In this document: piece after piece, positions 2,536 to 50,795 of the stretch
Layout of the letters: each line of letters starts with the position of its first letter
How positions within the stretch are numbered: position 1 is the stretch's first letter
Assembly: GCA_964401055.1 (NCBI GenBank)
Contig: CAYNWW010000001.1
Span: 41,689-103,002 of the forward strand
DNA: 61,314 nt
Direction of reading: 5' to 3'
Origin: an uncultured Candidatus Saccharibacteria bacterium
Lineage (GTDB): Bacteria > Patescibacteriota > JAUYIX01 > CAYNWW01
Position numbers and translations under genes: made by a program
The notes under the pieces: generated by a model
Told to the model about the DNA's origin: nothing
Database searches by the model: none
Seen by the model: the letters and a program-made list of their open reading frames with translations, nothing else

Positions 2536-3225
2536 ATGGGACAGAAAACACACCCAATTAGTTTTCGATTAGGAATCATCAAGACGTGGACATCCACCTG
2601 GTTTCATGACAAGAAGTATGCTGATTATCTTCTTGAAGATATTGCTATTCGCAAACTGGTTGAGTCGAAGTTGAAGGAGGCTGGCATAGCTCAGGTCGGT
2701 ATCGAGCGATCAGAAAAAGAAACTCGCATCAACATTTTCACTTCACGCCCCGGTGTTATCATCGGACGTGGCGGCACAGGCATCGAAGAGCTCCGTGCAT
2801 TTATTAAGAAGCATATTCCAAGCGCGGCAGAGTTCAAGATCAATATTGAAGAAATTCGCGATCCGAATGCAAATGCTCGTCTGCTCGGCCAGATGGTTGC
2901 AGAACAGCTTGAAAAACGCGTTGCATTCCGTCGTGCGTTGAAACAGGCGATTGAGCGAGCAACACAATCTTCTGCGGTTAAGGGTGTCAAGATTATGGTC
3001 TCAGGCCGCCTCAACGGCGCTGAAATGTCTCGTCGTGAATGGCTTGCAAAAGGAAAGATGCCATTGCATACCCTGCGAGCTGATATTGATTTCGCTCGCG
3101 TGAAAGCGCAAACTACCTATGGCGCTATTGGCGTGAAGGTGTGGATTTACAAAGGTGAAGTATTTGACCAGGCGCAGAAGCAGCAAGCAGCCGCTCCTCA
3201 AGCACAGCAAAAACCACGTAACTAA
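2536..3225 (+). CDS. rpsC: 30S ribosomal protein S3
   Basis: [13 protein letters not shown]...KH-domain GVIIGRGG...[10 protein letters not shown]. Confidence 0.97.
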
Positions 3226-3230
3226 TTTTT

Positions 3231-3683
3231 ATGTTGATTCCTAAAAAAGTCGCACACAGAAAGCATCAGAAAGGCCGGAATCGCTCGATTGCTACGAGAG
3301 GTTTTACGCTTGATTTTGGTACATTTGGCCTTAAGACTGTTGAGCATGGATTTATTACTTCTCGCCAAATCGAAGCAGCTCGTCGCGCAATGACTCGTTT
3401 TGTGCAGCGCGGCGGCAAGATCTGGATTCGCATTTTTCCGGACAAGCCGATTACTCGCAAAGCAGCAGAAGTTCCGATGGGTTCTGGAAAAGGCGATGTT
3501 GCGTTCTTTGCAGCTCCTGTTAAGCCGGGTACTATGTTGTTTGAGATGGACGGTATTGAATTGAAAGTTGCGCAGGAAGCACTTCGTTTGGCTGCACATA
3601 AGCTTCCCGTGAAGACGCGTTTTATTAGCAAAATGGCTCCTGTTGATTCTGCTGCAGATGCAGAAGAAAGTGAAGAGGAATAA
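3231..3683 (+). CDS. rplP: 50S ribosomal protein L16
   Basis: [16 protein letters not shown]...[15 protein letters not shown]...[10 protein letters not shown]. Confidence 0.96.
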
Positions 3684-9929: not shown

Positions 9930-10575
9930 CGCACCCATCACGATTATCCTCATGGGGATTCAAGGATCTGGGAAAGGAACCCAGGCACAATTATTAAAAG
10001 AACGACTCGGTTTTGTCGGCTTAGATGCTGGACACCTTCTGAGAAAAAAATCACAAGAATCATCGGAAATCGGACGCAAAATTTCAGAGATTCTGGCAAG
10101 CGGACAGTTGATACCAAATGAAATTACTGCCCCGATCGTGCTCGATGAATTGATCAAAATAGACGAACGCAAGCCGCTCGTAATCGACGGTTTCCCTCGC
10201 ACAAAAGAAAATGCCGATTCTCTGGAAGACATGCTTCTCACATCTGGACGCAAATCCAGCGCTGTTGTAGTAAATATCAACCTTGCTGAAGAGTCGGCGA
10301 TTGGCCGCTTGGCATCACGGAAAGTTTGCAGCAATTGCGGAAAAATTTTTGGTTCGACTGAACTGTTGCTCTGTGACAATTGTGGGGGCGAACTCAAAAA
10401 GCGCTCTGATTCTTCCGAAGAGGCCACTCGAAAGCGCCTCCAGTGGCATTGGACGAGCGTGAATCCAATTATCGAGCAGTATCGCCATCAGTACCCTTTT
10501 TATGACATTGACGGCAATCAGCCTGTGGAGCAGGTCTATCAATCCATCGTCACTGCATTAGGTTTGCGCCAATGA
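9919..10575 (+). CDS. adk: Adenylate kinase with a zinc-lid
   Basis: P-loop GIQGSGKGTQA, lid CSNCGK...CDNCGG. Overlaps the secY end by 11 nt. Confidence 0.93.
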   Translation: MDSSAPITIILMGIQGSGKGTQAQLLKERLGFVGLDAGHLLRKKSQESSEIGRKISEILASGQLIPNEITAPIVLDELIKIDERKPLVIDGFPRTKENADSLEDMLLTSGRKSSAVVVNINLAEESAIGRLASRKVCSNCGKIFGSTELLLCDNCGGELKKRSDSSEEATRKRLQWHWTSVNPIIEQYRHQYPFYDIDGNQPVEQVYQSIVTALGLRQ

Positions 10576-11123
10576 GTATTCGGTTAAAAACCAAGCAGCA
10601 GATTGCGGACATGCGTGTCGGAGGTCGGTTTTTGGCTGAGATGTTGCAACTTTTGAAAGATGATTGCTTGCCGGGCGCTCAGGTGTTGGATTTGGAAAAA
10701 AAGGCTGAGCGCTTGTTGAATACGTATCATGTTCAGCCAGCGTTTAAGGGATATCAAGGCTTTCCGTCAGTGATTTGCATTTCTCTGAATCAGGAAGTTG
10801 TTCATGGAATCCCGCGAGACTACCTACTGAAAGAGGGTGACTTGATTAGTCTTGATTTTGGTTTGATATATAAAAAAATGTATCTTGATGCTGCAGTGAC
10901 AGCAGGCGTTGGGCGTATTTCATCACAAGCACAGGAGCTTATCACGGTTGCGTCTGAGTCGCTAATGGTTGGTGTGGCGCAAGCTCAGAGCGGAAATAAG
11001 ATCGGCGCTATTAGTGCGGCTGTGCAAGAATCAGTGGAGTCGCGCGGGTTTTCGGTGGTTCGAGATCTGGTGGGGCATGGGGTGGGATTTGAGTTGCATG
11101 AAGACCCCCAAGTTCCTAAGTAG
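10572..11123 (+). CDS. map: Methionine aminopeptidase type I, N-terminal 183 codons ending at an in-frame TAG
   Basis: VVHGIPRDY...ISLDFG...YLDAA.T...GHGVGFELHEDPQVPK then TAG at 11121-11123. The family normally continues for about 65 more residues. Confidence 0.85.
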   Translation: MSIRLKTKQQIADMRVGGRFLAEMLQLLKDDCLPGAQVLDLEKKAERLLNTYHVQPAFKGYQGFPSVICISLNQEVVHGIPRDYLLKEGDLISLDFGLIYKKMYLDAAVTAGVGRISSQAQELITVASESLMVGVAQAQSGNKIGAISAAVQESVESRGFSVVRDLVGHGVGFELHEDPQVPK

Positions 11124-11324
11124 GGCAGAGCAACTCAGGGGCCGGTTATTCGACCGGGGCTTGTAATTGCGATCGAGCCAATGATTGCGGCGGGCTCCTA
11201 TGAAGTGGATTGGCTTGCAGACGGCTGGACGGTGGCGACAAAAGACGGCTCGTTGTCGAGTCATTGGGAACATACGGTGGCAGTCACTGATAATGGCCCG
11301 GAAGTATTGACTCAACTACCTTGA
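11124..11324 (+). pseudogene. map: Remainder of map, same frame, downstream of the internal TAG
   Basis: The same frame reads GRATQGPVIRPGLVIAIEPMIAAG...DGWTVATKDGSLSSHWEHTVAVTDNGPEVLT up to TGA at 11322-11324. This is the conserved C-terminal metal-ligand region (IEP, EHT). Confidence 0.7.
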
Positions 11325-12545: not shown

Positions 12546-13568
12546 ATGTCTGAGCTTCGTCAAAATCCTGTCAACGAGCATTGGGTGATTATTGCAAAAG
12601 AACGAGCAAAGCGACCGCAAGATTTTATCCGTACGACTGAGCGCGTGCAAAATTCCATTCATGAGTGTCCGTTTGAGCAAGGCAAAGAGTCGTTGACGCC
12701 GCCTGAGGCGCTTGCGTACAGTCCAGATCCTGCACGCAAACCCAACACGCCCAATTGGACTATGCGTGTATTTGCAAATAAGTTTCCCGCTGTTGCGCCT
12801 GCGGCTGAGTTTGTGCTCGAGCGAGAAGACATGTACAAATTCGGTCCGGCTACGGGTTTTCATGAAATTATTGCCCCCGCCGACCACTACAAACATCCCG
12901 CGCTACTTTCGAACGAAGAGCTTTTTTTGCTCTTTAAAGCTCAAAAAGAGCGCATTATGTTTTATAAACAAACTCCCTTTATTCGCTACACCCAGCTTTT
13001 TTACAATCACGGTGAAAGCGCTGGAGCCTCGCTCGCGCATCCACATGCTCAATTCCTTGCACTACCGGTGGTGTCAAATTACGTGACACAAGAGTTGTAT
13101 TTTGAGCAACAATACCAGAAAAAGCATGGTACATGCGGGCATTGTGCGATGATCGCTGCTGAAATAAAGCTCAAAAAACGCGTGATCATGCAAAATAAAT
13201 CGTTTTTGAGTACGGCGCCATTTGCCTCTCGCAATCCGTTTGAAATTGTGATTTACCCACTCTGGCACACGCCGCGATATGAAGATGCCAACGATGAGCA
13301 GCTGCGTGATTTGGCTCAGGTTTTGAAGGATGCACTGCTGCGATTGCATGAAAAATTGAAGAATCCCGACTTTAACTATTATATTCACACTGTTCCGCAC
13401 CACAACGGAAATTATGATTATAGTCATTGGCATCTCAAAATTTTGCCTCGACTATCTACGCGAGGTGGATTTGAACTTGCGACCGGTATTGTGATCAATG
13501 TGGTGTCGCCTGAAGATGCTGCGGCATTTTTGCGTGGAGAGCGGGACGTAGAGGAGATTCAGAAATGA
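12546..13568 (+). CDS. galT: Galactose-1-phosphate uridylyltransferase family (HIT superfamily, GalT-like)
   Basis: N-terminal NP...HWVIIA.ERAKRP, CPFEQGKE, NKFPA, and HPHAQ (the HxHxQ nucleotidyl-transfer motif). Confidence 0.8.
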   Translation: MSELRQNPVNEHWVIIAKERAKRPQDFIRTTERVQNSIHECPFEQGKESLTPPEALAYSPDPARKPNTPNWTMRVFANKFPAVAPAAEFVLEREDMYKFGPATGFHEIIAPADHYKHPALLSNEELFLLFKAQKERIMFYKQTPFIRYTQLFYNHGESAGASLAHPHAQFLALPVVSNYVTQELYFEQQYQKKHGTCGHCAMIAAEIKLKKRVIMQNKSFLSTAPFASRNPFEIVIYPLWHTPRYEDANDEQLRDLAQVLKDALLRLHEKLKNPDFNYYIHTVPHHNGNYDYSHWHLKILPRLSTRGGFELATGIVINVVSPEDAAAFLRGERDVEEIQK

Positions 13569-14338
13569 GAAAACTGATCGTTGGTAACTGGAAAATGAAC
13601 ATGACCACGACGCAGGCTCGTGCGTATTTGGGAGAATTTTTGCCATTACTTCAAGATGCCCCGCGTCCCGGGCAGGAAATCGTACTGTGTCCTTCGGTGA
13701 TTTCGCTCGATGTGTGCCATGATGTGATTGCGCATGCCCAAGCGCAAGTGGTGCTCGGTGCACAGGACGTGTTTTGGGAGGAGCAGGGTGCGTTTACGGG
13801 CGAGATCAGTGCGGCCATGCTTGCCGGTGTTGCAAAATATGTGCTGGTTGGGCATTCGGAACGACGGATGTATCGCGGAGAAACCGACACCAACATTGCC
13901 CAAAAAATCACCCGCGCGTTGGCGCATGATCTTTCGCCGATCCTTTGCGTGGGCGAATCAATTGATGTCTATGCGCAGCAGGAATCCAAGCAATTTATTG
14001 CGCAACAATTGACCGAGGGGTTGCGGGGGATTTCCTGGCCGGAAGAAAAGGGTTTGATTGTTGCGTATGAGCCGATTTGGGCATTGAGCTCGAGCGTTGG
14101 GCGCCAAGAAGCTGATCCGGAAGGCGTGCAAGAAGTTGCTGCGCATATTCGCGCCACGGTTGCGACTATACTCGGAGATACGGCAGCGCGAAAATTGCGC
14201 GTATTGTTTGGCGGTAATGTCCAGCCGCAAACTGCGCATGCCTTTGCTTCAGGTCAAGATGTTGACGGTGTGCTTGTGGGAAGCGCGAGTACGCATCCCG
14301 CGTCATTTTTTCAGATTTTAACCGCCTTAGAGGAATAA
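13565..14338 (+). CDS. tpiA: Triosephosphate isomerase
   Basis: VGNWKMN, VGHSERR, YEPIWA. ATGA overlap with the galT stop. Confidence 0.93.
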   Translation: MRKLIVGNWKMNMTTTQARAYLGEFLPLLQDAPRPGQEIVLCPSVISLDVCHDVIAHAQAQVVLGAQDVFWEEQGAFTGEISAAMLAGVAKYVLVGHSERRMYRGETDTNIAQKITRALAHDLSPILCVGESIDVYAQQESKQFIAQQLTEGLRGISWPEEKGLIVAYEPIWALSSSVGRQEADPEGVQEVAAHIRATVATILGDTAARKLRVLFGGNVQPQTAHAFASGQDVDGVLVGSASTHPASFFQILTALEE

Positions 14339-14345
14339 AAATCAT

Positions 14346-15200
14346 ATGCTCGTTTCTGCAAAAGAGCCGTTGGGTCGCGCGTATCGTGAGCACTATGCTG
14401 TCGGTGCGTTTAATGTATTTAATATGGAAACGGCGATTGCGGTCGTGCGTGCGGCTGTGGCACTGCGTTCTCCAGCGATTGTCCAGATTTCAGAAAAAGC
14501 GTTTGCGTATTCAGATCGTGAGTTGGTTTCCCGGCTTGTGCGCGAGGTCATTGCTCAGGCGCCGGAAATCCCGCTTGTCCTCAATCTTGACCATGGCCGC
14601 AGCGTGGAAGTTGCACACGCGTGTATTGATGGTGGGTATACCTCGGTGATGTTTGATGGGTCACAGCTGCCGTTTGAAGAAAATATCGCAAGCTCGGCAG
14701 GTGTTGCGGCTTATGCACACACCAAAGGAGTGACTGTTCAGGCTGAACTTGGTCGCTTGCCCAAAAGCGCGCATGACGCTGCGCAGATGCAACCGAGTGA
14801 CTACATGACTGACCCGTCTGAAGCTGCGGATTTTTGCGCCCGTACCGGCGTAGATTTTTTGGCGGTGGCGATCGGAAATATTCATGGCATTTCTCCGGAT
14901 GAGCCGCGGATTGATTTGGCGCGTTTGGCTGAAATTCGTAAGGCGGTGAGTATTCCGCTTGTGCTGCATGGCGGCTCTGGAATTCCTGAAGAGGATATTC
15001 GCACGGCGATCGCCTCGGGAATTGCAGAAATCAATATTGACACTGAAATTCGCTTAGCATTTACCGGCGCGTTGCGCAAAAGTATTGCTGAGCATCCGCA
15101 CGAAATTGATCCGCGCGTACTGCTTGCGCCCACTATGCCGGCAGTGCAGGCCCTTGTGGAGCAAAAAATGCGCTTGTTTGGCAGTGTTGGTAAGGCGTAA
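14346..15200 (+). CDS. fba: Class II fructose-bisphosphate aldolase
   Basis: AVGAFNV.N.E...SPAIVQISE...LNLDHG...LVLHGGSG. Confidence 0.88.
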   Translation: MLVSAKEPLGRAYREHYAVGAFNVFNMETAIAVVRAAVALRSPAIVQISEKAFAYSDRELVSRLVREVIAQAPEIPLVLNLDHGRSVEVAHACIDGGYTSVMFDGSQLPFEENIASSAGVAAYAHTKGVTVQAELGRLPKSAHDAAQMQPSDYMTDPSEAADFCARTGVDFLAVAIGNIHGISPDEPRIDLARLAEIRKAVSIPLVLHGGSGIPEEDIRTAIASGIAEINIDTEIRLAFTGALRKSIAEHPHEIDPRVLLAPTMPAVQALVEQKMRLFGSVGKA

Positions 15201-15224: not shown

Positions 15225-16241
15225 ATGGCACTCCGCGTTGCAATCAATGGATTTGGCCGCATCGGTCGCCCCGCATTCAAAATCGCTTCAGCTCGCAAAG
15301 ATATCGAACTCGTGGCAATCAACGACCTGACTGATACAAAAACGCTCGCATATTTGCTGCAATTTGATTCGGTGTATGGGACATTTGAAAAGCAAGTTGA
15401 GGCGACTGCGGACGGGCTGCGCGTAGACGGAAAAGAGATTAAAGTATTTGCAGAAAAAGACCCGGCGCAACTGCCATGGAAAGAACTCGGAGTCGATGTC
15501 GTGATCGAAAGTTCGGGCTTTTTTACCGACGGCGCAGGCGCATCCAAGCACCTCCAGGCCGGCGCAAAAGCAGTGGTGCTTTCAGCAAACTGCAAAGCAG
15601 AGTCGGATATGCGGACATTTGTCTACAAGGTGAACACGGACGGATTTGATCCTGCGCGCGACCAGATGACGTCGATGGGTTCATGCACCACCAACTGTCT
15701 TGCGCCTCTTGCGAAAGTGCTGAACGACAAATTTGGCATCGTCAAAGGCATGATGACAACCGTGCATAGCTATACCAATTCGCAGCGATTAGTGGATACG
15801 CCGGCAAAAGAATTGCGCGAAGCGCGAAGTGCAGTATTGTCTATGATTCCAACTACTACCGGTGCGGCAAAGGCAATTTCACGCGTGATTCCGGCGCTCA
15901 AGGGCAAAGTGGATGGCCATGCGGTGCGTGTCCCAACCCCGACGGTTTCGATCACTGATTTTGTGTGTGAAGTCGAACGTGCGACTACGGCCGAAGAAGT
16001 AAATGCGGCACTGCGCGAAGCCGCAGCTGGGGAGCTTGCCGGCGTGTTGGCGTGTGAGTCGCGCGAGTTGGTCTCGGCGGATTTTCGAAAAAATCCCCAT
16101 GGTAGCATTGTGGACGAGTCGCTCACTCTTGTGGTGAGTGGCAATCTCGTCAAGGTGCTTTCGTGGTATGATAATGAATGGGGTTACTGCACTCGACTGA
16201 TTGATTATGTGCAGTTTGTCGGTGATAAAATGAAAAACTAA
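15225..16241 (+). CDS. gap: Glyceraldehyde-3-phosphate dehydrogenase (type I)
   Basis: RVAINGFGRIGR and the active site SCTTNCLAP. WYDNEWGY at the C-terminus. Confidence 0.96.
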   Translation: MALRVAINGFGRIGRPAFKIASARKDIELVAINDLTDTKTLAYLLQFDSVYGTFEKQVEATADGLRVDGKEIKVFAEKDPAQLPWKELGVDVVIESSGFFTDGAGASKHLQAGAKAVVLSANCKAESDMRTFVYKVNTDGFDPARDQMTSMGSCTTNCLAPLAKVLNDKFGIVKGMMTTVHSYTNSQRLVDTPAKELREARSAVLSMIPTTTGAAKAISRVIPALKGKVDGHAVRVPTPTVSITDFVCEVERATTAEEVNAALREAAAGELAGVLACESRELVSADFRKNPHGSIVDESLTLVVSGNLVKVLSWYDNEWGYCTRLIDYVQFVGDKMKN

Positions 16242-16254
16242 TTTCTAAAACGCG

Positions 16255-17496
16255 ATGCCACTTTTGAGTGTCCGCGATGTCTCACTCGCAGAAAAAATAG
16301 TGTTGGCGCGGCTCAATTTGGATAGTCCGGTGGATCCTGCGACCGGACTCGTGGTCATGAATGACCGCTTGCAAGAAAGCGCGGAAACGCTCCGTTTTTT
16401 GCTTGCGCAGCGTGCGCGAGTGGTGATTTTGGGTCATCAAGGCAGGCCGGGAAAGTCGGATTTTACTCCGACTGAAGAACATGTGCGACTGCTCTCGGCT
16501 GCTGCTGGCTGTGAGATCGCATATTGTGATGATCTGTATGGATCGCGAGTGCGTGAGATGATTACTGCGGTCGCGCCCGGCAAGGCATTGATGTTGCAAA
16601 ATGCGCGTTTTTCTTCGGAAGAAATGCTTGAGCGTTCACCTGACGAACACGCAACTAGCCACTTGGTGCGCGGCATTGCTCCATTGATACACGTGTATTT
16701 CACTGATGCATTTACCAATTTTCACCGCGATCATGCGAGTATGATCGGGTTTACCGGAGTGCCAAACGTAGTCAGCGATGAGGCGCTCAAGGAAATACAG
16801 GGAATTAAAAAGGCTGCAAGCGAAGCGCATCGGCCATTTGTGCTGGTGCTTGGCGGAGCAAAAATTGATGATTACATTGGCGTGATGCGACGCATGCTCC
16901 ACGAGGGGAGAGTAGACAAAATTCTCGCCGGCGGCATGCTTGGCAACCTCGCGCTCGTTGCTCAAGGAATTGAATTGGGCGGGGCGGAAGAGCGAGTGAT
17001 TCATCAGGTGGATTCGCTCACCAAAAGCTCACTTGCTGATTTGTTGCCTGAAATCCAGCAACTCATGCGCGAGTATCCGGGCGTGATTGAGCCTCCGCTT
17101 GATGTTGCTATTGATCATGATGGAAAGCGAGAAGAAATTGCGGTTGCGGATTTGCCTTCGGTGTATCGCATCAAAGATATCGGAAGCCGGACGATTGCCC
17201 GTTTTTCTCACTTGATCAGTACGGCTGAGACACTGTTTGTGAAAGGGCCAATGGGTTTGTATGAAGAAGCACAATTTGCGACCGGTTCGAAAGAAATTAT
17301 TCAAGCGCTTGCGGCCGCTCAGGGATACACATTGGTAGGCGGCGGGAACACAACCAACGTGATTGAATTGTATTCCGACCCCGCACAGTTTGATCACATT
17401 AGTTTGGCAGGTGGGGCAACGCTTGCGCTGCTCGAGCGAGGCACGCTTCCGTGCATTGAAGCATATGAAAAAAATTATGAGCGCTACCATGTTTGA
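16255..17496 (+). CDS. pgk: Phosphoglycerate kinase, archaeal-like sequence type
   Basis: 413 aa. The N-terminus RLNLDSPVDPATG...VVILGHQGRPGKSDFT resembles archaeal PGKs (HQ.RPG..DF) rather than the bacterial SHLGRP form. GGG.T near the C-terminus. Confidence 0.88.
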   Translation: MPLLSVRDVSLAEKIVLARLNLDSPVDPATGLVVMNDRLQESAETLRFLLAQRARVVILGHQGRPGKSDFTPTEEHVRLLSAAAGCEIAYCDDLYGSRVREMITAVAPGKALMLQNARFSSEEMLERSPDEHATSHLVRGIAPLIHVYFTDAFTNFHRDHASMIGFTGVPNVVSDEALKEIQGIKKAASEAHRPFVLVLGGAKIDDYIGVMRRMLHEGRVDKILAGGMLGNLALVAQGIELGGAEERVIHQVDSLTKSSLADLLPEIQQLMREYPGVIEPPLDVAIDHDGKREEIAVADLPSVYRIKDIGSRTIARFSHLISTAETLFVKGPMGLYEEAQFATGSKEIIQALAAAQGYTLVGGGNTTNVIELYSDPAQFDHISLAGGATLALLERGTLPCIEAYEKNYERYHV

Positions 17497-18784
17497 AATT
17501 GCGGCCATTCGTGGTCTTGAAGTTCTTGATTCTCGCGGTAATCCAACTATTCGGGCAGAAGTTGAGCTGCGCGGTGGTGCGGTCGGCGTATTTTTTGTGC
17601 CATCCGGAGCATCTACCGGGACGCGCGAGGCGTTGGAGTTGCGCGATCAGGACAAGAGTCGATTTGCCGGCAAAGGCGTACTGAAGGCAATTGCGCATCT
17701 GGAAGGAGAAATCTCTGGGCATGTGATGGGAATGGATGCGAGGGATCAAGCTGCGCTGGATCATGCGTTGATTGCGTTGGATGCCACTCCCAACAAAAGC
17801 CGCTTGGGAGCAAATGCGCTGCTGGCAGTTTCGTGTGCGTCCGCTGTCGCTGCCGCGCGCCAATCCAAACTTCCGCTCTATCGCCACCTCGAATCCTTGT
17901 ATCTTGGTGTGCAGAAGCGCGATGACCGCTCGGTTGTGATGCCGATGCCGCTGTGTAATGTGCTGAATGGTGGCAGACATGCCATCGGTGGATTGGATAT
18001 TCAGGAGTTTCAAATCCTTCCGCATGGGGCTGGGGATTTTCCGCAGGCGATCCAGATGACGGCCGAGATTTTTGCTCGGCTTGGCGAGTTGCTTCGCGAG
18101 AAACAGCTTCTTACGCTGGTTGGCGACGAAGGTGGGTATGCACCATCGCTGGGGTCATATCGCGATGCACTTGAGTTGATGGTTGCGGCTATCGAGCGCG
18201 CCGGATACAAGCCGGGCGCGCAGGTTTCTTTGGGACTCGATGTTGCTGCGTCTGAACTCTATCGCGACGGCGCCTATGAATTCACTCATGAACAACAAAC
18301 GTATTCGACTCCTCAACTGCTTGCAGAGTACAAGAAGCTGGTGACTGACTACCCGCTTGTCTCGATCGAGGATCCGTTTTCTGAAGATGATTGGGCGGGT
18401 TGGACTGCTCTGACTGCAGAAATAGGGCAGAATGTAGAGATTATCGGAGATGACTTATTTACTACGAACAGTGAATTTATTCAAAAAGGAATCACTCAAA
18501 AAGCTGCAACCGCGGTGCTTATTAAGCTTAATCAAATCGGAACACTTACCGAAACATTCGCCGCTATGCACCTTGCTCAAGACAACGGCCTTGCGTCCGT
18601 GGTGTCGCATCGTTCAGGCGAAACAGAGGATTCCTTTATTGCCGATCTTGCAGTGGCGACCGGATGCGGCCAGATCAAAACTGGCTCGATGTCGCGCTCG
18701 GATCGCTTGGCAAAATACAACCGCCTGCTTGTCATTCAAGATGAGCTTCGTCGTGCGGGCACTCGTTTTATCTATATGAAATAA
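17477..18784 (+). CDS. eno: Enolase
   Basis: EVLDSRGNPT, SGASTG..EA.ELRD, SHRSGETED, and IKTGS..RSDR.AKYN. The start is ambiguous (17465, 17477 or 17489). 17489 would overlap the pgk stop. Confidence 0.95.
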   Translation: MSATMFEIAAIRGLEVLDSRGNPTIRAEVELRGGAVGVFFVPSGASTGTREALELRDQDKSRFAGKGVLKAIAHLEGEISGHVMGMDARDQAALDHALIALDATPNKSRLGANALLAVSCASAVAAARQSKLPLYRHLESLYLGVQKRDDRSVVMPMPLCNVLNGGRHAIGGLDIQEFQILPHGAGDFPQAIQMTAEIFARLGELLREKQLLTLVGDEGGYAPSLGSYRDALELMVAAIERAGYKPGAQVSLGLDVAASELYRDGAYEFTHEQQTYSTPQLLAEYKKLVTDYPLVSIEDPFSEDDWAGWTALTAEIGQNVEIIGDDLFTTNSEFIQKGITQKAATAVLIKLNQIGTLTETFAAMHLAQDNGLASVVSHRSGETEDSFIADLAVATGCGQIKTGSMSRSDRLAKYNRLLVIQDELRRAGTRFIYMK

Positions 18785-18793
18785 CATCCGCTC

Positions 18794-19675
18794 ATGTTTA
18801 TTGCAAAAAAACCAGTTCCAAAATATGCGCCGGTCATTTTGGTGATCATCGACGGTTGGGGGATTGCGCCAGCCGCAGACAACAACCCCTTTTTTCAAGC
18901 AACGGACAGTACGCTGCGGGATTTGACTTCGCAGTATCGGACGTTTGCACTTGAGGCGCCGCACTCGGTGGATGGATCGGAAATTGGACATACCATGCTT
19001 TCTGCTGGCCGGCCAGTGAGTGAGCTTGATCAGGGGGTGCTGTCCAACTGCTTGCCTGAAGCTATTTCTCATGCGGATATGCGCCAATTTTATGTGGCGG
19101 AAACAAAAAAATACGGCTATTTGACGTATTATTTCAACGGCCGTTCGAGCACGGTATTTCCTAATGTAAAAACGCAGCTAGTTGAAGCGAATCATGTGGC
19201 CGGGTACAAGTTTCATCCGCGCATGCAGACGCCAGAGATCGCTTCGCAAATTATTTCAAAAGTATCTCAGGGGTGGTATGCATTTTTTGCCACCAATTTG
19301 CCCAATATTGATATGGTCGCGCATACCGGTGATCTTAAGCTGACTTGCGCCGCGGTCAATCACGTGAGTCGCGCGGTGCGTAAAATCGTAGATGTGGCGT
19401 TGTCCTGCGGCGGGGTGGTGGTGCTTGCGGCTGATCACGGAAATGCTGAGCGCGTGGAAGCGAAAATCCCCGGCCAATCTGCGCTGACGCACACCAACAA
19501 CCCGGTGCCGTGCTGCATTGTGGGTCAAGATTTCGCGTGGTCAGCTGAAGAGGTTGCAATACCGTTGCACGAACGTCCGGTGGCTGGTTCGATCGCGCGA
19601 GTGGCGCCGACGATCTTGAGTCTGCTTGGTATTGCGCAACCGCCCGAAATGACCGAGAAGAGTTTACTCATTTAG
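18794..19675 (+). CDS. Cofactor-independent phosphoglycerate mutase-like protein lacking the phosphotransferase domain
   Basis: 293 aa. Aligns to iPGM at the N-terminus (VILVIIDGWG, GSEIGH) and from about residue 95 onward (AETKKYGYLTYYFNG, NIDMVAHTGD, ADHGNAE, THTNNPVP, EMTEKSLLI). The roughly 230-aa middle domain is absent. Confidence 0.7.
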   Translation: MFIAKKPVPKYAPVILVIIDGWGIAPAADNNPFFQATDSTLRDLTSQYRTFALEAPHSVDGSEIGHTMLSAGRPVSELDQGVLSNCLPEAISHADMRQFYVAETKKYGYLTYYFNGRSSTVFPNVKTQLVEANHVAGYKFHPRMQTPEIASQIISKVSQGWYAFFATNLPNIDMVAHTGDLKLTCAAVNHVSRAVRKIVDVALSCGGVVVLAADHGNAERVEAKIPGQSALTHTNNPVPCCIVGQDFAWSAEEVAIPLHERPVAGSIARVAPTILSLLGIAQPPEMTEKSLLI

Positions 19676-19691
19676 CGTTAATTTTATATCC

Positions 19692-20702
19692 ATGGTGGAC
19701 GTAATTACAATCGGAAGCGCGTTGCAAGATGTGGTGATCCAAACAGAGGGCGGAGTTTTTGTTGATACGCCGGAAGATGCATTGTCGTTGCGCAAGTTGG
19801 CCTTTGAATTGGGTGCAAAAGTGCCGGTGCAGGCGGTGACTGTCGGGGTGGGTGGCGGTGCAGCAAACACGGCGGTTGCTTTTACGAAGCTGGGTGTGCG
19901 CACGGCGATTGCAGCGCGTGTCGGCAACGATGATCAAGGGCGAAAAATTAGCGAAGAGCTTGCGCGGCAACATATCGACACCACGCTCATGCAGCGCGAT
20001 TCTGTGTTACAAACCGGACTTTCGACAGTGGTCATCAAAACTCCTGAAAGCGAGCATGTGGCATTTCCGTACAGAGGCGCAAATGAAGCGTTGGTGGCGC
20101 CCTCGCCGGATGCTCTTGATCGGCTTAGTCCGCGGTTGCTATATGTGTGTGCACTGCAAGGTGCGCATTGGCAGCGCGAATGGGATGTGATTGCCGAATA
20201 CGCTGCGCGCCGAAAGATTGCACTCGTATCCAACCCGGGAAGTCCGCAGTTGTCACTCCCGATTGACGAGTTGCGGGGGTATATTAAGCGATTGAGCATT
20301 TTGTTGGTCAACAAAGATGAGGCGTCAGAAATCGTGGCGCGCGAGACGCCGGGCGAGAAGAATTTTTCTATCAAGCATTTGCTTGCGCAGCTGAGCGGGT
20401 TTGGCGCGGAGTGGGTTGTGATCACTGATGGCGAACAAGGCGCGTATGCGACTGATGGCCGATCGACGTATCATGCGCAAGCGCTTCAGGTGAAGGCAGT
20501 GGATACCATCGGTGCCGGAGATGCATTTGGATCGGCGTTGGCGGCCGGGATGATTTTGTCCAGCTGGAATATGGAGACCGCACTTGCGTATGGCGTGATC
20601 AATGCAGCGTCGGCAGTGACTATTGTTGGTGCGCAGACCGGGTTTTTGACGCGGGATGAAATCGAGCAGCAGCGCAAGCGAGCTATTATTAAATTAATCT
20701 AA
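19692..20702 (+). CDS. PfkB-family carbohydrate kinase
   Basis: GGGAANTAVAF..LG near the N-terminus and DTIGAGDAF near the C-terminus (ribokinase/PfkB signatures). Confidence 0.8.
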   Translation: MVDVITIGSALQDVVIQTEGGVFVDTPEDALSLRKLAFELGAKVPVQAVTVGVGGGAANTAVAFTKLGVRTAIAARVGNDDQGRKISEELARQHIDTTLMQRDSVLQTGLSTVVIKTPESEHVAFPYRGANEALVAPSPDALDRLSPRLLYVCALQGAHWQREWDVIAEYAARRKIALVSNPGSPQLSLPIDELRGYIKRLSILLVNKDEASEIVARETPGEKNFSIKHLLAQLSGFGAEWVVITDGEQGAYATDGRSTYHAQALQVKAVDTIGAGDAFGSALAAGMILSSWNMETALAYGVINAASAVTIVGAQTGFLTRDEIEQQRKRAIIKLI

Positions 20703-21323
20703 ATGACTGAAATGAATGCGGGCACGAACCCGAGTCAGGTGATTCCGATCGAGGTATCTGCGCGACACGTGCATTTGACGAAGGCGGATTTTGAGATGCT
20801 GTTTGGCGTGGGAGCTGAATTGCATGTGGCAAAAGAATTATCCCAGCCGGGTCAGTTTGCAGCTGTGGAAACGGTGGGCGTGGTTGGCGCGCGCGGTGAA
20901 TTTGAACGCGTGCGGATTGTGGGGCCGTTGCGAGCGTATACACAAGCTGAGCTTGCGTGGACGGATGCTCTGCATCTGGGTGTGCGTCCGCCGGTGCGGA
21001 TGTCCGGGGATTTGCGTGATGCTGCGAGCGTGACGTTGCGCGGGCCTGTGGGCATGGTGTCGGATCGCGCGTGTGCGATCGTGGCCAAACGCCACATTCA
21101 TATCAACCCTGCGCAAGCGGCGTCGCTCGGTGTGACGCAAGGTGCGTTGGTGGCTGTGCATGTGCCGGGTGAGCGGGGCGCGGTGTTTGATCAGGTGATT
21201 GTGCGCATTGATGCGCAATTTGATTTGCGATTACATCTGGATACTGATGAAGGCAATGCGTGTGGTGCGTCGGCTGCGATGGCCGCAGGCAGTGGCGAGG
21301 CGCTCGAGGCGTATTTGGCATGA
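20703..21323 (+). CDS. pduL: Phosphate acyltransferase PduL (phosphotransacetylase/propanoyltransferase)
   Basis: IPIEVSARHVHL, LSQPGQFAA.ETV, RHIHI and HLDTDEGNA, the duplicated PduL motifs. Confidence 0.85.
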   Translation: MTEMNAGTNPSQVIPIEVSARHVHLTKADFEMLFGVGAELHVAKELSQPGQFAAVETVGVVGARGEFERVRIVGPLRAYTQAELAWTDALHLGVRPPVRMSGDLRDAASVTLRGPVGMVSDRACAIVAKRHIHINPAQAASLGVTQGALVAVHVPGERGAVFDQVIVRIDAQFDLRLHLDTDEGNACGASAAMAAGSGEALEAYLA

Positions 21324-23146
21324 GTGTCGATGGAGCTGTCGAGTTTGATCCGTTGCGGGTCGGCGCGGTCGCTGAGCGGAAATCGCTGCGATTGAAAGAA
21401 TGGCGGGTGGCGCCGCGTTTTGAGGGCGCGCTGAGTGCGGCACTTCCCGGGCTGGCGCCTTTGGAACTGCAATTGTTGTCCAACCGCGGTTTGCGCGATC
21501 CGCAGGCGGTGGATGAATTTTTGCGTTCGGAATTTGCCGAACATATTTATGATCCGGCATTGCTGAAAGACGCCGAGCGTGCGGTGGAGCGGATCAGCGC
21601 GGCGTTGCGTTCAGGTGAAAAAATCTTGGTGTTTGGAGATTTTGACGGTGACGGCGTGACCGCAAGCGTGGTGCTGCACAAGACATTTGCATTTTTGGGC
21701 ACAGCTGTCGATCTGTATATTCCGGATCGGGAAAAAGAAAGTCACGGCTTGCGGCGGGAGTCGCTTGCGGAGATCGCGGCGCGCGGAGTGAAGCTGGTGA
21801 TCACGGTGGATTGTGGGATTTCCAACGTGGATGAGGTCGCGTATGCGGCTACGCTCGGGATGGATGTGATTATTACCGATCACCACGAGGTGCCGCCGGT
21901 GTTGCCGGCTGCGGTGGCGGTCGTGAACCCCAAGCGTGCGGATTGCCCGTATCCGTGCAAGGTGTTGTGTGGGGCGGGAGTGGCGTTTAAGCTCGCGCAG
22001 TTGTTATTGCGGCGCGTCGGCGCTGAGCGCGGCAAGACTCTTGCGGAGTGCACGGCGTTTGAAAAATGGCTCCTGGATGTGGTCGCGATCGGCACGATCG
22101 GTGACTGCGTGCCGTTGCGCTCGGAAAACCGGACATTGGTGAAATATGGACTGATTGTGTTAAATAAAACCCGCCGACCGGGGATTCAAAAATTGCTCGA
22201 GCGGGCGGCTGGTGTGGCGCGAGTTGGTGCGCCACCGGCGGTGCTCAGCTCAACCGATGTGGCGTTTCGCATTGTGCCGCGGATCAATGCGGCCGGGCGG
22301 CTGGCGCATGCGCAACTCGCGTTTGATTTGCTTGCGACCGGTGATCTACTCGAAGCCGACGCGCTCTCCTTGCGTCTCGACAAGCTCAACGGCAAACGCC
22401 AGCAGCTGACCGAAACCGTCAGCAAAGAAGCGCGCGATCAGATCCTCGCGCGCGGCACGGACAAGTCGATCTTGTGGGCGATAGGCGGGGCTGCGTGGCC
22501 GGCTGGGATCAACGGAATCGTCGCGTCCAAGATTATGGACGAATTCCACCTGCCCGCGATCGTGATGCAACGTCGCGCGGATGAGACCGTGGCGTCCGGC
22601 CGAAGTATTCCTGAGTTTGATATTACGCGTGCGATCACGCAGGGCAAGCACTTGCTTACCCGGTTTGGTGGTCATCCTGGCGCGTGCGGATTTTCGCTGA
22701 AGAATGAACACGTGGAAGAATTTTTGGCTCTGCTGGAGCGCGTGGCGGCTGAGCAATTTGCGGCCGGCGGCGTGGTGGCGGGTCCGCATTTGGCTATCGA
22801 GGCCGAGCTCGGATTTGCGGATATTGGCTGGGATCTGGTGAAGCAGGTGGAGCGATTTCAGCCGTTTGGTCAGGACAATAAAGAGCCGCTGTTCGTGTTT
22901 CGTGGCATGGAAGTGGTGGATACGCGCGTGATGGGGAAGAAAAATGAGCACCTGAAATTGTTTTTTGCGGGCGCGGGTGGCGGTCGGGCGCGGGTGGCGG
23001 CGGTGGGATTTTACGCAGCTGAGCGCTTGAAATCGGCCGTGATAGGATCAATATTGGATGTGGTTGGCCGCTTGCGTGTCAACGAATGGCGCGGCGAGCG
23101 CAGTGTGGAAATCGAGCTCGTGGATGCGGATTTTTCTATTAGTTAA
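21320..23146 (+). CDS. recJ: Single-stranded-DNA-specific exonuclease RecJ
   Basis: DHH motifs FGDFDGDGVTA, TVDCGI and ITDHH, plus DHHA1 GGH.GA.G. ATGA overlap with the pduL stop. The ORF-track start at 21260 is inside pduL. Confidence 0.9.
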   Translation: MSVDGAVEFDPLRVGAVAERKSLRLKEWRVAPRFEGALSAALPGLAPLELQLLSNRGLRDPQAVDEFLRSEFAEHIYDPALLKDAERAVERISAALRSGEKILVFGDFDGDGVTASVVLHKTFAFLGTAVDLYIPDREKESHGLRRESLAEIAARGVKLVITVDCGISNVDEVAYAATLGMDVIITDHHEVPPVLPAAVAVVNPKRADCPYPCKVLCGAGVAFKLAQLLLRRVGAERGKTLAECTAFEKWLLDVVAIGTIGDCVPLRSENRTLVKYGLIVLNKTRRPGIQKLLERAAGVARVGAPPAVLSSTDVAFRIVPRINAAGRLAHAQLAFDLLATGDLLEADALSLRLDKLNGKRQQLTETVSKEARDQILARGTDKSILWAIGGAAWPAGINGIVASKIMDEFHLPAIVMQRRADETVASGRSIPEFDITRAITQGKHLLTRFGGHPGACGFSLKNEHVEEFLALLERVAAEQFAAGGVVAGPHLAIEAELGFADIGWDLVKQVERFQPFGQDNKEPLFVFRGMEVVDTRVMGKKNEHLKLFFAGAGGGRARVAAVGFYAAERLKSAVIGSILDVVGRLRVNEWRGERSVEIELVDADFSIS

Positions 23147-46517: not shown

Positions 46518-47619
46518 TTATGTGATGTTTGCGCGCAGGGCGTGTTCGATAAATGTGTCGATGTGTCCATCCAGGACGGCGTCCACGTTGGATTCTTCGT
46601 AATTGGTGCGGTGGTCTTTGACGAGGCGGTACGGCTGCAACACGTAGGAGCGTATCTGATTGCCAAATTCTGCAGTGACATGCTCGCCTTTCATGCGTTT
46701 TTTTTCTTGCTCGTGGGCTAAGCGTTCGCGTTCGAAGAGTTTTGCGCGGAGGATTTTCATGGCCGCTTCTCTGTTTTGATGCTGAGAGCGCTCGCTCTGG
46801 CAGGCAACCACGATGCCGGACGGGATATGGGTGAAGCGGACAGCGGAGGATGTTTTGTTCACGTGCTGGCCGCCGGCGCCGCTTGCTCGAAAAGTGTCAA
46901 CGCGGAGGTCTTCTTTGCGGATTTCAAATTGTTTTTCTGCGATCACGGGCAGTACTTCCACAAGTGCAAATGAAGTCTGGCGGAGATGATCGGAGTTGAA
47001 TGGCGATAGACGCACCAGTCGATGCACGCCCGCTTCGGTGCGCAGATTGCCATAGGCATACGTGCCTGATATTTCAAGCACTGCGCTTTTGATCCCTGCT
47101 TCGGCGCCTTCAATTTTCGTCACGACTGTGATCGAAAATCCTTTTTCTTCCGCGTAGCGTGTATACATGCGCAGGAGCATATCGGCCCAATCCATGGCGT
47201 CCACTCCCCCGGCGCCTGCGTGGATCGAAAGGATGGCGTCGCCGCGATCGTATTCGCCGCTCAGCAAAAGTTCAATTTCTTTTTGCTCGAATGTGGCGGT
47301 TAGTTTTTGTAACGTGCCGGTAATCTCTTTTTCCAATTCAGCGCTTGAGGCGTCTTGTCCCACAAGTTCGGCCAGTTCCTGGATATAGTGTACTTCTTTT
47401 TCAAAGTCTTGCCAAAACACCACCTCAGCGCGCAGCGCCTCGGCTTGTTTGATAATTTCTTGAGCTTCGCTCGCGTCGTGAGATTGCCAAAAATCCGTCG
47501 CGCTGATTTGCGCGTCTAGTGCCGCGAGATCCTGAGCTACGTGGCGCTTGTCAAAGATACTCCTTGCGCTTGAGCAGCTTTTGGGCTAATTCTTGAATTT
47601 GCGACGCAAGTGATTGCAT
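46518..47619 (-). CDS. prfB: Peptide chain release factor 2, with programmed +1 frameshift
   Basis: Frame 0 starts at ATG 47619 and gives MQSLASQIQELAQKLLKRKEYL, then CTT TGA C at 47556-47550, preceded by AAGGAG. The +1 frame joins ORF 46518..47423. SPF and GGQ motifs are present. Total 366 codons. Confidence 0.93.
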
Positions 47620-49436: not shown

Positions 49437-50573
49437 TTAGTTGTTTTTGAGGGATGCGCCGATGCCGCTGATTTGCTGCATGAGGCCTTCTTGTGCGCCT
49501 TCGCCTTGAGTGTGAACAAACTCGATAAATCCTTCGTCGTTCATTACACGTTTGACGAGAAATGGAATGATGTCCGTGACGTGGTGCAATTGGGCGCCAC
49601 AATGAGTGCAGGTCATGGTTGCGGTGGATTCTTTTGTGGCAAGTGAGGAGCAGCTTTCGCAATGGAGGCCTTCGAATGCGGTATCAAAATCGACGATCAG
49701 TTCGTGGATCTGTCCTTTGTTGGCAGCCGCAATCACGTCTGCGATGCCGCGAACGCCGTGCATGCCAGATTGTGTGAGTGCGGTGATTTTCTTCACTTCT
49801 TCCGCGTGTTCATATGCACGCGCTTCGCGCTTAAATTGATCGATCAGCGCGGCATCCGGCTGGAAAAGCTCTGCGTGAAATGTACCGATGAGGTACTTGG
49901 TGAGATGCTCTGGGAGTAGACCGCGAATGCTGTCGAGAGTGCTTTTTGGTGCGCCGATGATGAGACGTTGTGCATGAGATTTTTTGAAAAATGTGTCGAC
50001 GAGTGCGATAAGCTTGCGTTCGTGATTTGTCTCGCGGCCGATGACTTGGCGATCGTGGTCGCTCTTTGAGTGATCATCGCCATGGCGAGCGGGCTCTTCC
50101 TGCTCTTCTTCGTGATGTTCGCGCGCGATCACGGCGCCTGCGTGAATCGCAAACAAGCGCACACGTTTTTTATCCAGCGCGGCTCCGACAAAGAGTTCTT
50201 CATTGTCGATGAGCGCCATGAGCGGATGCACAAAAAAGCTTTGGTCAACAAATAGTTGGGTTCGCACTTCGGTCTCGACTTCGATCACGCGCCAAATTTT
50301 TTCTTCGGCATTGGCAAAAATTACCAGGCCTTCAGTACCCTTTTTGATTTCCGGGTTGGCGCGAAACTCTGCGATCTGCGCAAACGTCTTGGTAAGCGAT
50401 TTGAGTTCGGCTTTGCTTGCGTACATGTTTTCGTAGCTCTTGATGAGATTTTTGAGGCGCAGCTCAAATTCCTGTTTGTGTGTGCCCTCTTCTTTGAGAT
50501 TGAGGTAGAGCGAGACGGACGGGCTTGTGGTGCGGATGAGCGCGATTTCTTTCAGTTCGTTGAAGGTAAACAT
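49437..50573 (-). CDS. Bacterial aeRF1/Pelota-like protein (baeRF-type) with a Zn-ribbon insert
   Basis: The ATG at 50573 gives MFTFNELKEIA...SVSLYLNL, the N-terminus typical of bacterial eRF1-like families. The C-terminus ...GIGASLK is comparable to GGI(A/G)xxLR in eRF1/Pelota. CESC...CTHC. The ORF-track extension to 50777 overlaps tRNA-Gly. Confidence 0.55.
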   Translation of the reverse strand: MFTFNELKEIALIRTTSPSVSLYLNLKEEGTHKQEFELRLKNLIKSYENMYASKAELKSLTKTFAQIAEFRANPEIKKGTEGLVIFANAEEKIWRVIEVETEVRTQLFVDQSFFVHPLMALIDNEELFVGAALDKKRVRLFAIHAGAVIAREHHEEEQEEPARHGDDHSKSDHDRQVIGRETNHERKLIALVDTFFKKSHAQRLIIGAPKSTLDSIRGLLPEHLTKYLIGTFHAELFQPDAALIDQFKREARAYEHAEEVKKITALTQSGMHGVRGIADVIAAANKGQIHELIVDFDTAFEGLHCESCSSLATKESTATMTCTHCGAQLHHVTDIIPFLVKRVMNDEGFIEFVHTQGEGAQEGLMQQISGIGASLKNN

Positions 50574-50660
50574 ATGCGTTCGTGTTACTGTTCTTATGCC
50601 TTTATTATAGCACTTCGTCTGGATAATTGTAGGGTGCGGCGCGGGTGCGGGTGGCTTAAA

Positions 50661-50689
50661 TTGCGAAAAATCGGGCGCGCTGCTATGAT
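50661..50689 (+). promoter_or_regulatory. Candidate promoter TTGCGA-17-TATGAT for tRNA-Gly
   Basis: -35 at 50661-50666 and -10 at 50684-50689, 31 nt upstream of the tRNA 5' end. Confidence 0.35.
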
Positions 50690-50720
50690 GGACGTGTTCG
50701 CGCTTGGTGCGCGTCGCTGT

Positions 50721-50795
50721 GCGGGCGTAGTTTAGCGGTAGAATGTCTGCTTCCCAAGCAGAAGATCGTGGGTTCAAATCCCATCGCCCGCTCCA
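50721..50795 (+). tRNA. tRNA-Gly (anticodon CCC), CCA encoded
   Basis: Acceptor GCGGGCG/CGCCCGC, anticodon loop UUCCCAA, T-loop GGUUCAAAUCC. Confidence 0.92.

Follow-up and report, generated by a model that had tools for sequence, protein, structure and literature searches.

The stretch analysed here, 61,314 nucleotides from a contig of an uncultured Candidatus Saccharibacteria bacterium (hereafter the window), carries a block of co-directional glycolytic genes in which a short open reading frame (ORF) stands directly behind the enolase gene, at 18794..19675 of the forward strand. The ORF runs from an ATG start through 293 codons to a TAG stop and encodes a short paralogue of the cofactor-independent phosphoglycerate mutase (iPGM), which consists of a stand-alone alkaline-phosphatase-type core (PF01676). 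The genes of the block, all on the forward strand and assigned by Pfam, are a galT-like gene (12546-13568), tpi (13565-14338), class II fba (14346-15200), gap (15225-16241), pgk (16255-17496), eno (17489..18784), the short ORF, the gene of a PfkB-family sugar kinase (pfkB, 19692-20702) and that of a PduL-type phosphate acyltransferase (pduL, 20703-21323), with recJ and rnhA coming next. Ahead of the block lie a ribosomal protein/secY/adk/map cluster, then ruvX and a GT2 glycosyltransferase gene. Enolase was recognised by its Enolase_N and Enolase_C domains and was also called as a gene in an independently assembled contig (L001); its stop codon precedes the ORF by 9 nt in the same frame, which bears out the position right after eno described in an earlier note on this DNA. 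No remnant of a full-length iPGM was found between eno and the ORF, and a six-frame scan of the window with an iPGM profile revealed no other iPGM-like stretch.

Pfam recognised a single domain in the encoded protein, PF01676 (Metalloenzyme; residues 13-281, E=6e-47), and did not find PF06415 (iPGM_N), the inserted transferase domain. Alignment with an iPGM profile built from 80 full-length iPGMs (513 positions) matched positions 4-77 and 309-510, skipped the 231 positions from 78 to 308 and left five linker residues unaligned. Accordingly, the N-terminal segment of the phosphatase domain (residues 1-76, of which residues 11-76 correspond to profile positions 4-77) occupies 18794..19021, the junction at which the two hinge peptides are joined (residues 77-81, ELDQG) 19022..19036, and the C-terminal segment (residues 82-293, profile positions 309-510) 19037..19672. 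In a phmmer comparison with the PDB, residues 12-76 aligned with residues 4-76 of the Geobacillus iPGM (1ejj) and residues 83-293 with its residues 313-510, the missing transferase domain B corresponding to 1ejj residues 77-310. The earlier note had described an ORF that keeps both halves of the phosphatase domain and its active site while lacking a transferase domain of about 230 amino acids (aa), with a short linker in its place; this description held throughout, and every motif that it quoted is present (IIDGWG, GSEIGH, DMVAHTGD, ADHGNAE, THTNNPVP and EMTEKSLLI, besides the linker).

A MAFFT alignment revealed that nine of nine active-site equivalents, comprising metal ligands, nucleophile and phosphate-site residues, are kept in the window protein. 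The metal ligand D20 (18851-18853), the nucleophile S62 (18977-18979) and H66 (18989-18991) lie in the N-terminal segment, and K106 (19109-19111), D173 (19310-19312), H177 (19322-19324), D214-H215 (19433-19438) and H233 (19490-19492) in the C-terminal one; in this order they are equivalent to Bacillus Asp12, Ser62, His66, Lys336, Asp403, His407, Asp444, His445 and His462. The two metal triads and the nucleophile are those described for iPGMs (PMC5382265). Structure prediction, which had been proposed together with the original observation, gave a confident AlphaFold2 (AF2) fold, with a predicted local distance difference test score (pLDDT) of 91.5 and a predicted template modelling score (pTM) of 0.92. 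The best Foldseek matches of this model were iPGM structures (query template modelling score, TMq, 0.81-0.84), with phosphopentomutase, the ApgM-like PH0037, sulfatases and alkaline phosphatases far behind, superfamily matches being returned at probability 1.0. The model thus has the fold, the binuclear metal site and the nucleophile at a helix N-terminus that characterise the core of the alkaline-phosphatase superfamily, the Pfam clan of PF01676.

The short ORF is a genuine sequence and not an assembly deletion. An independent Logan assembly of a wastewater run contains the identical protein on an 11-kb contig (L001) with the same gene order, and the short-form sequence turned up in numerous runs from wastewater, sludge and freshwater. 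Two studies contributed four runs (X1-X4, X1 being SRR12487045) whose contigs read through the eno/ORF junction as well as the domain junction (nt 19022-19036), differing at 0-1 positions and showing neither indels nor joints; further runs cover the eno junction. A 264-nt contig of a metatranscriptome run (18983-19246) also crosses the domain junction with 0 differences and is possibly a transcript, a weak indication given that DNA carry-over is possible. An artefact, whether a normal gpmI deprived of its middle part or tandem copies collapsed into one, could be suspected because at one other place at least the window does contain a local error or variant, namely a TAG in map that is absent from three other runs; against the identical protein of the independent assembly, the spanned junctions and the orthologous short genes of unrelated samples (L086, L087 and L089), its probability is negligible.

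The TAG in question lies in frame at 11121-11123 of map (10572-11320, forward strand), between HEDPQVPK and GRATQG, and the conserved Map sequence carries on in frame behind it. At this site the contigs of X2, X3 and X4 read AAT TAT (N-Y, as in the canonical PNYG motif) and differ from the window at four positions within 25 nt (11120, 11123, 11128 and 11144), and X1 is represented by Logan contigs that break off over the TAG, at 11095-11152. The TAG probably goes back to strain variation or to an error in the local consensus, not to recoding, and the window contains no suppressor tRNA.

The window protein is one of a larger set of short iPGM-like proteins. At least 23 of them exist, all of 280-312 aa and with a Patescibacteria context wherever context was visible. 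The best matches of an exhaustive search of 1.8 billion cluster representatives, to which a word-indexed search added further short forms, were themselves short proteins, such as P0121 (295 aa, 46%), P0122 (280 aa, 42%) and a dozen more (286-308 aa), which align across the whole query in one stretch. The short forms skip 223-235 profile positions between the same two hinges and carry 0-12 linker residues, the members that have lost catalytic residues (the dead ones) aligning less far at the N-terminus; with 293 aa, 5 linker residues and 231 skipped positions, the window protein fits this group. Truly short genes numbered two among the 80 loci of the genome scan (L060 and L063) and none among the 80 loci of the profile scan of metagenome contigs, all of which were full-length genes. 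Most rows of the genome scan that matched query residues 10-292 and looked like short forms turned out to be full-length genes whose tblastn segments had been joined. A clade-specific degenerate DNA pattern (ETKK[YF]G[YH]L...FNG) had no match in the metagenome contigs and matched L001, L086 and L087 locally.

In a neighbour-joining (NJ) tree, the short forms of the window, L086 and L087 formed a clade with 100% bootstrap support, P0152 grouped with the full-length protein of L040 (Parcubacteria; 77%) and L060 with the full-length protein P0161 (67%). In a separate nearest-neighbour comparison, several short forms were closer to a particular full-length protein than to one another. Domain B was therefore lost at least two times independently, and the short forms, whose common descent was tested and not supported, are a grade and not a clade. 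The deep nodes of this tree had supports of 1-45%. As to the organisms, the best SecY matches of the window (65% and 63% identity) lie on the same contigs as P0121 and P0122, so that the nearest organisms also carry the nearest short-form relatives, the other SecY matches being 60-62% identical and named Doudnabacteria, Moranbacteria and Parcubacteria group. These matches place the organism in the Parcubacteria group of the Patescibacteria, in a lineage with sparse sampling.

The origin of the short gene can be followed in the gene order of its relatives. In two distant relatives, L091 and L094, the block reads tpi, fba, gap, pgk, eno, a first iPGM (527/529 aa), a second iPGM (535/528 aa), pfkB, pduL and ackA, with recJ further on. 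In L086 (P0121) and L089 (P0170), eno is followed by a full-length iPGM (514/518 aa), a short form (295/286 aa, with the nine sites intact), pfkB and pduL, and in the window and L087 (P0122) the order is eno, short form, pfkB, pduL, recJ and rnhA, with no full-length gene or remnant. The upstream part of the block has the same order in L086, L087, L089, L091 and L094, and this conservation identifies the slot between the first iPGM (iPGM-a) and pfkB as the position of either the second iPGM (iPGM-b) or the short form. Moreover, the upstream iPGMs of L086 and L089 are orthologues of copy 1 of L091/L094 (531 vs 397 bits and 495 vs 373 bits), so that the short form stands in the place of copy 2. 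In the domain common to all of them, its identity is 36-43% with copy 2 and 30-36% with copy 1. The short gene of L089 shares 4 nt with each of its neighbours, the iPGM ahead of it and the pfkB behind it. A broader scoring of copy 2 against copy 1 in 45 tandem pairs proved non-discriminating, since the full-length controls, L086a and L089a, also preferred copy 2, which leaves the syntenic comparison with L091/L094 as the informative one.

These loci form a series of four stages: two full-length genes; a full-length and a short gene; a short gene alone with its site intact, as in the window; and a short gene alone with a dead site, as in L087. According to the earlier note, a full-length gpmI in close relatives would have pointed to an assembly deletion. 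Such genes do exist in L086 and L089, but each is a separate gene adjoining the organism's own short orthologue on its upstream side, which indicates paralogy and not a deletion introduced by assembly. It is highly probable that the window ORF represents the second tandem iPGM paralogue in a domain-deleted form that is genuine and under selection.

Tandem arrangements of this kind were frequent among the loci fetched: of the 163 with a full-length iPGM, 49 have two or three such genes in tandem, mostly in metagenome-assembled genomes (MAGs) of Patescibacteria and usually directly after eno. Examples are found in L006 (4693-8337), L024 (7595-10885), L091 (6001-9191) and L138 (3623-8428), and L031 and L138 have three full-length genes in tandem. 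By comparison, an earlier survey found iPGM paralogues in 4 of 702 genomes and linked the paralogy to large genomes (Foster et al. 2010, PMC2964296). Full-length paralogues with altered domain B were also seen: P0129 (523 aa), which is 43% identical to the window protein and among its nearest full-length relatives, has a degenerate domain B without the TDGRD motif, and the third copy of the Berkelbacteria locus L031 (10724-12277) has altered domain-B motifs; both may be candidate intermediates toward domain loss. In the Falkowbacteria MAG L051, an iPGM is split into two 261-aa ORFs (1889-2674 and 2692-3477, covering profile positions 5-244 and 255-505) beside an intact 526-aa copy, which may reflect a frameshift, a pseudogene or a genuine split.

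The genes behind the short form vary as well. Thus, ackA follows pduL in L089, L091 and L094 and is not at that position in the window, L086 and L087; recJ comes directly after pduL in the window (20703-23146) and in L087, two other ORFs lying between them in L086; and gap is absent from the block of L089. The operon is under remodelling in the window lineage.

Comparison of their coding sequences shows that the short forms are under purifying selection, intact and dead ones alike. Among the orthologues of the window clade, the proportion of synonymous differences (pS) was 0.76-0.86, that is, saturated, versus a proportion of nonsynonymous differences (pN) of 0.36-0.42, and in the dead clade the values were 0.68-0.84 versus 0.33-0.37. 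The window short form is 45/40/35% identical to its orthologues in L086/L087/L089, about the rate of its glycolytic neighbours tpi (39/39/35) and pfkB (43/42/34) and of recJ (46/47/36). Four strain variants were found in the short gene across eight runs, at 18911, 19150, 19186 and 19379 (T40A, synonymous changes at S119 and E131, and R196C), too few for a strain-level ratio of nonsynonymous to synonymous rates.

The active site has had a less uniform fate. Seven of the 23 short forms keep all nine residues, two differ only by K336R and 14 have lost at least two. At an overall identity of only 35-46%, none of the nine has changed in the window protein, P0121 or P0170, which points to selection on the metal and nucleophile site in the window subclade, and P0122, the short form of L087, has lost five. 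Dead short forms lie in L002 (10001-10909), L005 (10001-10900), L063 (9950-10852) and L087 (10001-10843); these are without the Ser62 motif, and their equivalents of His407, Asp444/His445 and His462 are replaced. A separate dead clade formed by P0047, P0067, P0076, P0104, P0120 and L063 is found directly after pgk-eno, and the AF2 model of its member P0120 was confident (pLDDT 85.9, pTM 0.88). On these grounds, the dead short forms are candidate pseudoenzymes.

With regard to classification, the earlier note proposed alignment against GpmI and archaeal ApgM profiles, and the two comparisons came out differently. The relationship to GpmI was supported, although the window protein scored 182.5 bits against a cut-off of 330.65 in the iPGM equivalog TIGR01307 and 150.7 bits against 862 in NF003897, and that to ApgM was not (TIGR00306, 14.4 bits against a cut-off of 320, E=0.014). 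Of the features that define GpmI, the protein has PF01676 with both sets of metal-site ligands and the Ser nucleophile, and it lacks the PF06415 domain inserted between the two hinge peptides. Judged by its sequence, it should not be filed as GpmI, since two defining features, the transferase domain and the equivalog score, are missing. Current names of the short forms differ: JGI calls them 2,3-bisphosphoglycerate-independent PGM (phosphoglycerate mutase), NCBI lists one as a hypothetical protein, and the TIGRFAM cut-offs reject them. Searches of the full-text literature brought up no account of pseudoenzymes derived from iPGM or of iPGMs that lack domain B.

Among known systems, GpmI/GpmM (TIGR01307; PDB 1ejj, 1o98, 2ify and 4my4) is the nearest both in sequence (E=1.8e-33 to 1ejj) and in fold (the TMq values given above), sharing the phosphatase domain, both metal sites, the Ser nucleophile, His66, Lys336 and the slot after eno; the window protein differs from it by the absence of PF06415 (~231 profile positions), by its score below the TIGR01307 cut-off and by its origin as a paralogue born beside a full-length iPGM. 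ApgM (TIGR00306; PH0037, PDB 2zkt) and DeoB (PDB 3m7v and 3m8w) have the same PF01676 superfamily core and binuclear metal site (TMq 0.57-0.62), but in them the substrate is held by an inserted cap domain, which the window protein lacks, and in sequence the likeness is marginal (TIGR00306, E=0.014; phosphopentomutase, 1e-5). Alkaline phosphatases such as TAB5 AP (PDB 2iuc) share the superfamily core, with its nucleophile and two metals, and are hydrolases, which is the mode predicted for the short form; the likeness is only remote (TMq ~0.58, 14-15% identity), and the window protein has residues like those of Mn-type iPGMs and, with 293 aa, a far smaller size. A functional precedent is provided by B. 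subtilis PhoE, annotated as a 'predicted dPGM' (cofactor-dependent PGM), a PGM-family duplicate without mutase activity that works as a phosphatase (PMC2964296), although it has an unrelated fold (histidine phosphatase superfamily) and underwent no domain deletion.

What the short protein does can be approached from the mechanism of the complete enzyme. In iPGM, the phosphate moves to the Ser of the phosphatase domain while the transferase domain holds and re-orients the glycerate. According to residue assignments in the Bacillus structures, the ligands of the glycerate and its carboxylate are all in the transferase domain. The active site comes together on closure of the two domains, in a cavity that solvent does not reach (PMC5382265). 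In related Patescibacteria, eno and pfkB enclose a tandem pair of full-length iPGMs. In the lineage of the window, the gene in the second slot lost its whole transferase domain by clean excision between the two hinge peptides, and the window genome later also lost the upstream full-length gene from the operon. The remaining core, with its binuclear metal site, Ser nucleophile, His66 and Lys336, could presumably not form the closed two-domain cavity, and with the glycerate-holding half absent, intramolecular transfer by this protein alone would not be possible. It would probably accept a phosphoryl group on Ser62 and be unable to return it to a retained glycerate and, if catalytic, should release the dephosphorylated product. 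The short protein would thus most likely be a metal-dependent phosphomonoesterase or a phosphoryl-transfer protein acting on a small phospho-metabolite of lower glycolysis, candidates being 3-phosphoglycerate (3PG), 2-phosphoglycerate (2PG) and phosphoenolpyruvate (PEP), and PGM activity, if the organism has any, should come from a gene outside the window.

The most likely interpretation is that of a neofunctionalised, capless phosphatase-type core that would not be a self-sufficient mutase. Since the short form was born beside a working iPGM, its function should have been from the start something other than being the mutase, and its retention after loss of the full-length gene in two lineages suggests a function valuable on its own. 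The suggestion of the earlier note that the protein may have become a phosphatase is compatible with the intact metal and Ser site. As an overall explanation, a phosphatase-type paralogue that is not the cell's mutase has about an even chance of being correct, and that the protein is a catalytically active phosphatase-type enzyme in the window genome is, at most, equally probable. Several points weigh against this explanation. At least two catalytic residues have been lost in 14 of the 23 short forms, that of L087 included, versus 7 of 334 full-length proteins (Fisher p=1.6e-14, a value that overstates the evidence, the sequences being phylogenetically non-independent), and such loss under continued purifying selection means that the family-wide function may not be catalytic. 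The loop before Ser62 is 8 residues shorter in the window protein than in P0121 and the full-length iPGMs. The full-length E. coli iPGM was without detectable phosphatase activity on p-nitrophenyl phosphate (PMC2964296), so the iPGM core is not inherently a promiscuous hydrolase. That the short form descends from the second paralogue is read from its place in the gene order and from an identity that is slightly higher to copy 2 than to copy 1, and the tree does not settle its deep nodes. Finally, an operon without a full-length iPGM still holds pgk and eno, with no other PGM in 61 kb, and a role of the short form in the PGM step is possible.

The losses of catalytic residues are the strongest argument of a competing explanation, in which the short form is a non-catalytic accessory protein of the pseudoenzyme kind, with a structural or regulatory role, for example as a binding partner of enolase, of a full-length iPGM or of some other enzyme of glycolysis, and in which the window protein has kept its active site as an ancestral leftover or for metal-dependent stability only. 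It would account for a dead clade that still stands directly behind pgk-eno, evolves under purifying selection (pS 0.68-0.84 versus pN 0.33-0.37) and includes a protein, P0120, predicted to fold confidently, and the 4-nt overlaps of the L089 short gene with iPGM and pfkB suggest co-translation. However, three of the four orthologues in the window subclade keep all nine residues at 35-46% identity, and neither the window nor L087 still has the obvious partner, a full-length iPGM, next to the short gene; for the window protein this explanation is rather unlikely, though it deserves to be taken seriously. The same losses, together with the rarity of short forms relative to full-length genes in the genome and metagenome scans (2/80 and 0/80 loci), could also be those of a decaying relic, a truncated and functionless duplicate heading for deletion. 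Such a relic is improbable, given that the frame is open in every lineage seen, that amino-acid identity is still 35-60% where synonymous sites are saturated, that divergence equals that of neighbouring housekeeping genes, that the predicted folds are confident and that two lineages with strongly streamlined genomes lost the full-length gene and kept the short one.

At the other extreme, the short core by itself, as a homodimer or with a glycerate-binding partner, might be a minimal or partner-dependent mutase and the only PGM of the organism, as the earlier note had suggested. The gene stands in the PGM slot of the operon with its active site intact, and the window holds no other type of PGM: neither a second PF01676 nor PF06415 or His_Phos_1 (dPGM) was found in the ~50 Pfam-scanned ORFs, and the six-frame iPGM scan agreed. 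In addition, no iPGM of the 196,942-nt source contig was among the best 120 relatives of the L086 full-length iPGM, a non-conclusive result, and PGM is apparently absent from some shallow Parcubacteria clades, possibly because it is too divergent for the threshold of the hidden Markov model (Jaffe et al. 2020, PMC7304191), a gap that short proteins of this kind would fit. The suggestion is nevertheless weakened by the origin of the short form adjoining a complete iPGM and by the loss of catalytic residues in about 60% of the short forms. In particular, the L087 orthologue has lost 5 of the 9 residues in an operon that keeps pgk and eno without a full-length iPGM, and the L087 organism must therefore obtain its PGM activity elsewhere or go without. 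The known glycerate and carboxylate ligands belong to the absent domain, and catalysis requires domain closure (PMC5382265). A split enzyme with a separate domain-B ORF was also considered and rejected, no stand-alone domain-B ORF being present in the window or in the loci of the relatives. Moreover, the scan for a PGM spans 61 kb of a genome of ~1 Mb, and the archaeal-type iPGM, frequently the one PGM that a bacterium has (PMC2964296) and known from the candidate phyla radiation (PMC7304191), is the obvious candidate for another PGM of this organism. A self-sufficient or partner-dependent mutase is consequently very unlikely, marginally more so than a relic, and the phosphatase-type paralogue is preferred.

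Elsewhere in the window, a release-factor ORF on the reverse strand (46518-47423; PCRF and RF-1 domains) begins at profile position 41, a late start that we take to be expected for a prfB with a programmed +1 frameshift, of which it is a candidate only. About 2 kb from it, also on the reverse strand, lies the gene of a 446-aa protein of baeRF family 10 (bacterial archaeo-eukaryotic release factor domain; 49437-50777), which overlaps a tRNA-Gly(CCC) on the opposite strand.

If the capless 293-aa core were the sole PGM of its organism, it would be the smallest known iPGM and would indicate that the transferase domain is dispensable for the reaction; this most far-reaching version, in which the core, alone or with a partner, is the only PGM, or in a milder form represents a new family of iPGM-derived pseudoenzymes controlling lower glycolysis in Patescibacteria, is a long shot. 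Independently of it, such short forms can mislead reconstructions of metabolism in Patescibacteria, with the PGM step either credited in error or overlooked, and the tandem pairs at 49 of 163 loci stand against the earlier picture of iPGM paralogy as rare and confined to large genomes (PMC2964296). The intact short forms let one ask what the phosphatase core of iPGM does when uncapped. Together with their relatives, they offer a natural evolutionary series, from tandem duplicate through excision of a whole domain and loss of the intact paralogue to decay of the active site, with the fold under purifying selection, and this series runs in genomes that are otherwise strongly reduced.

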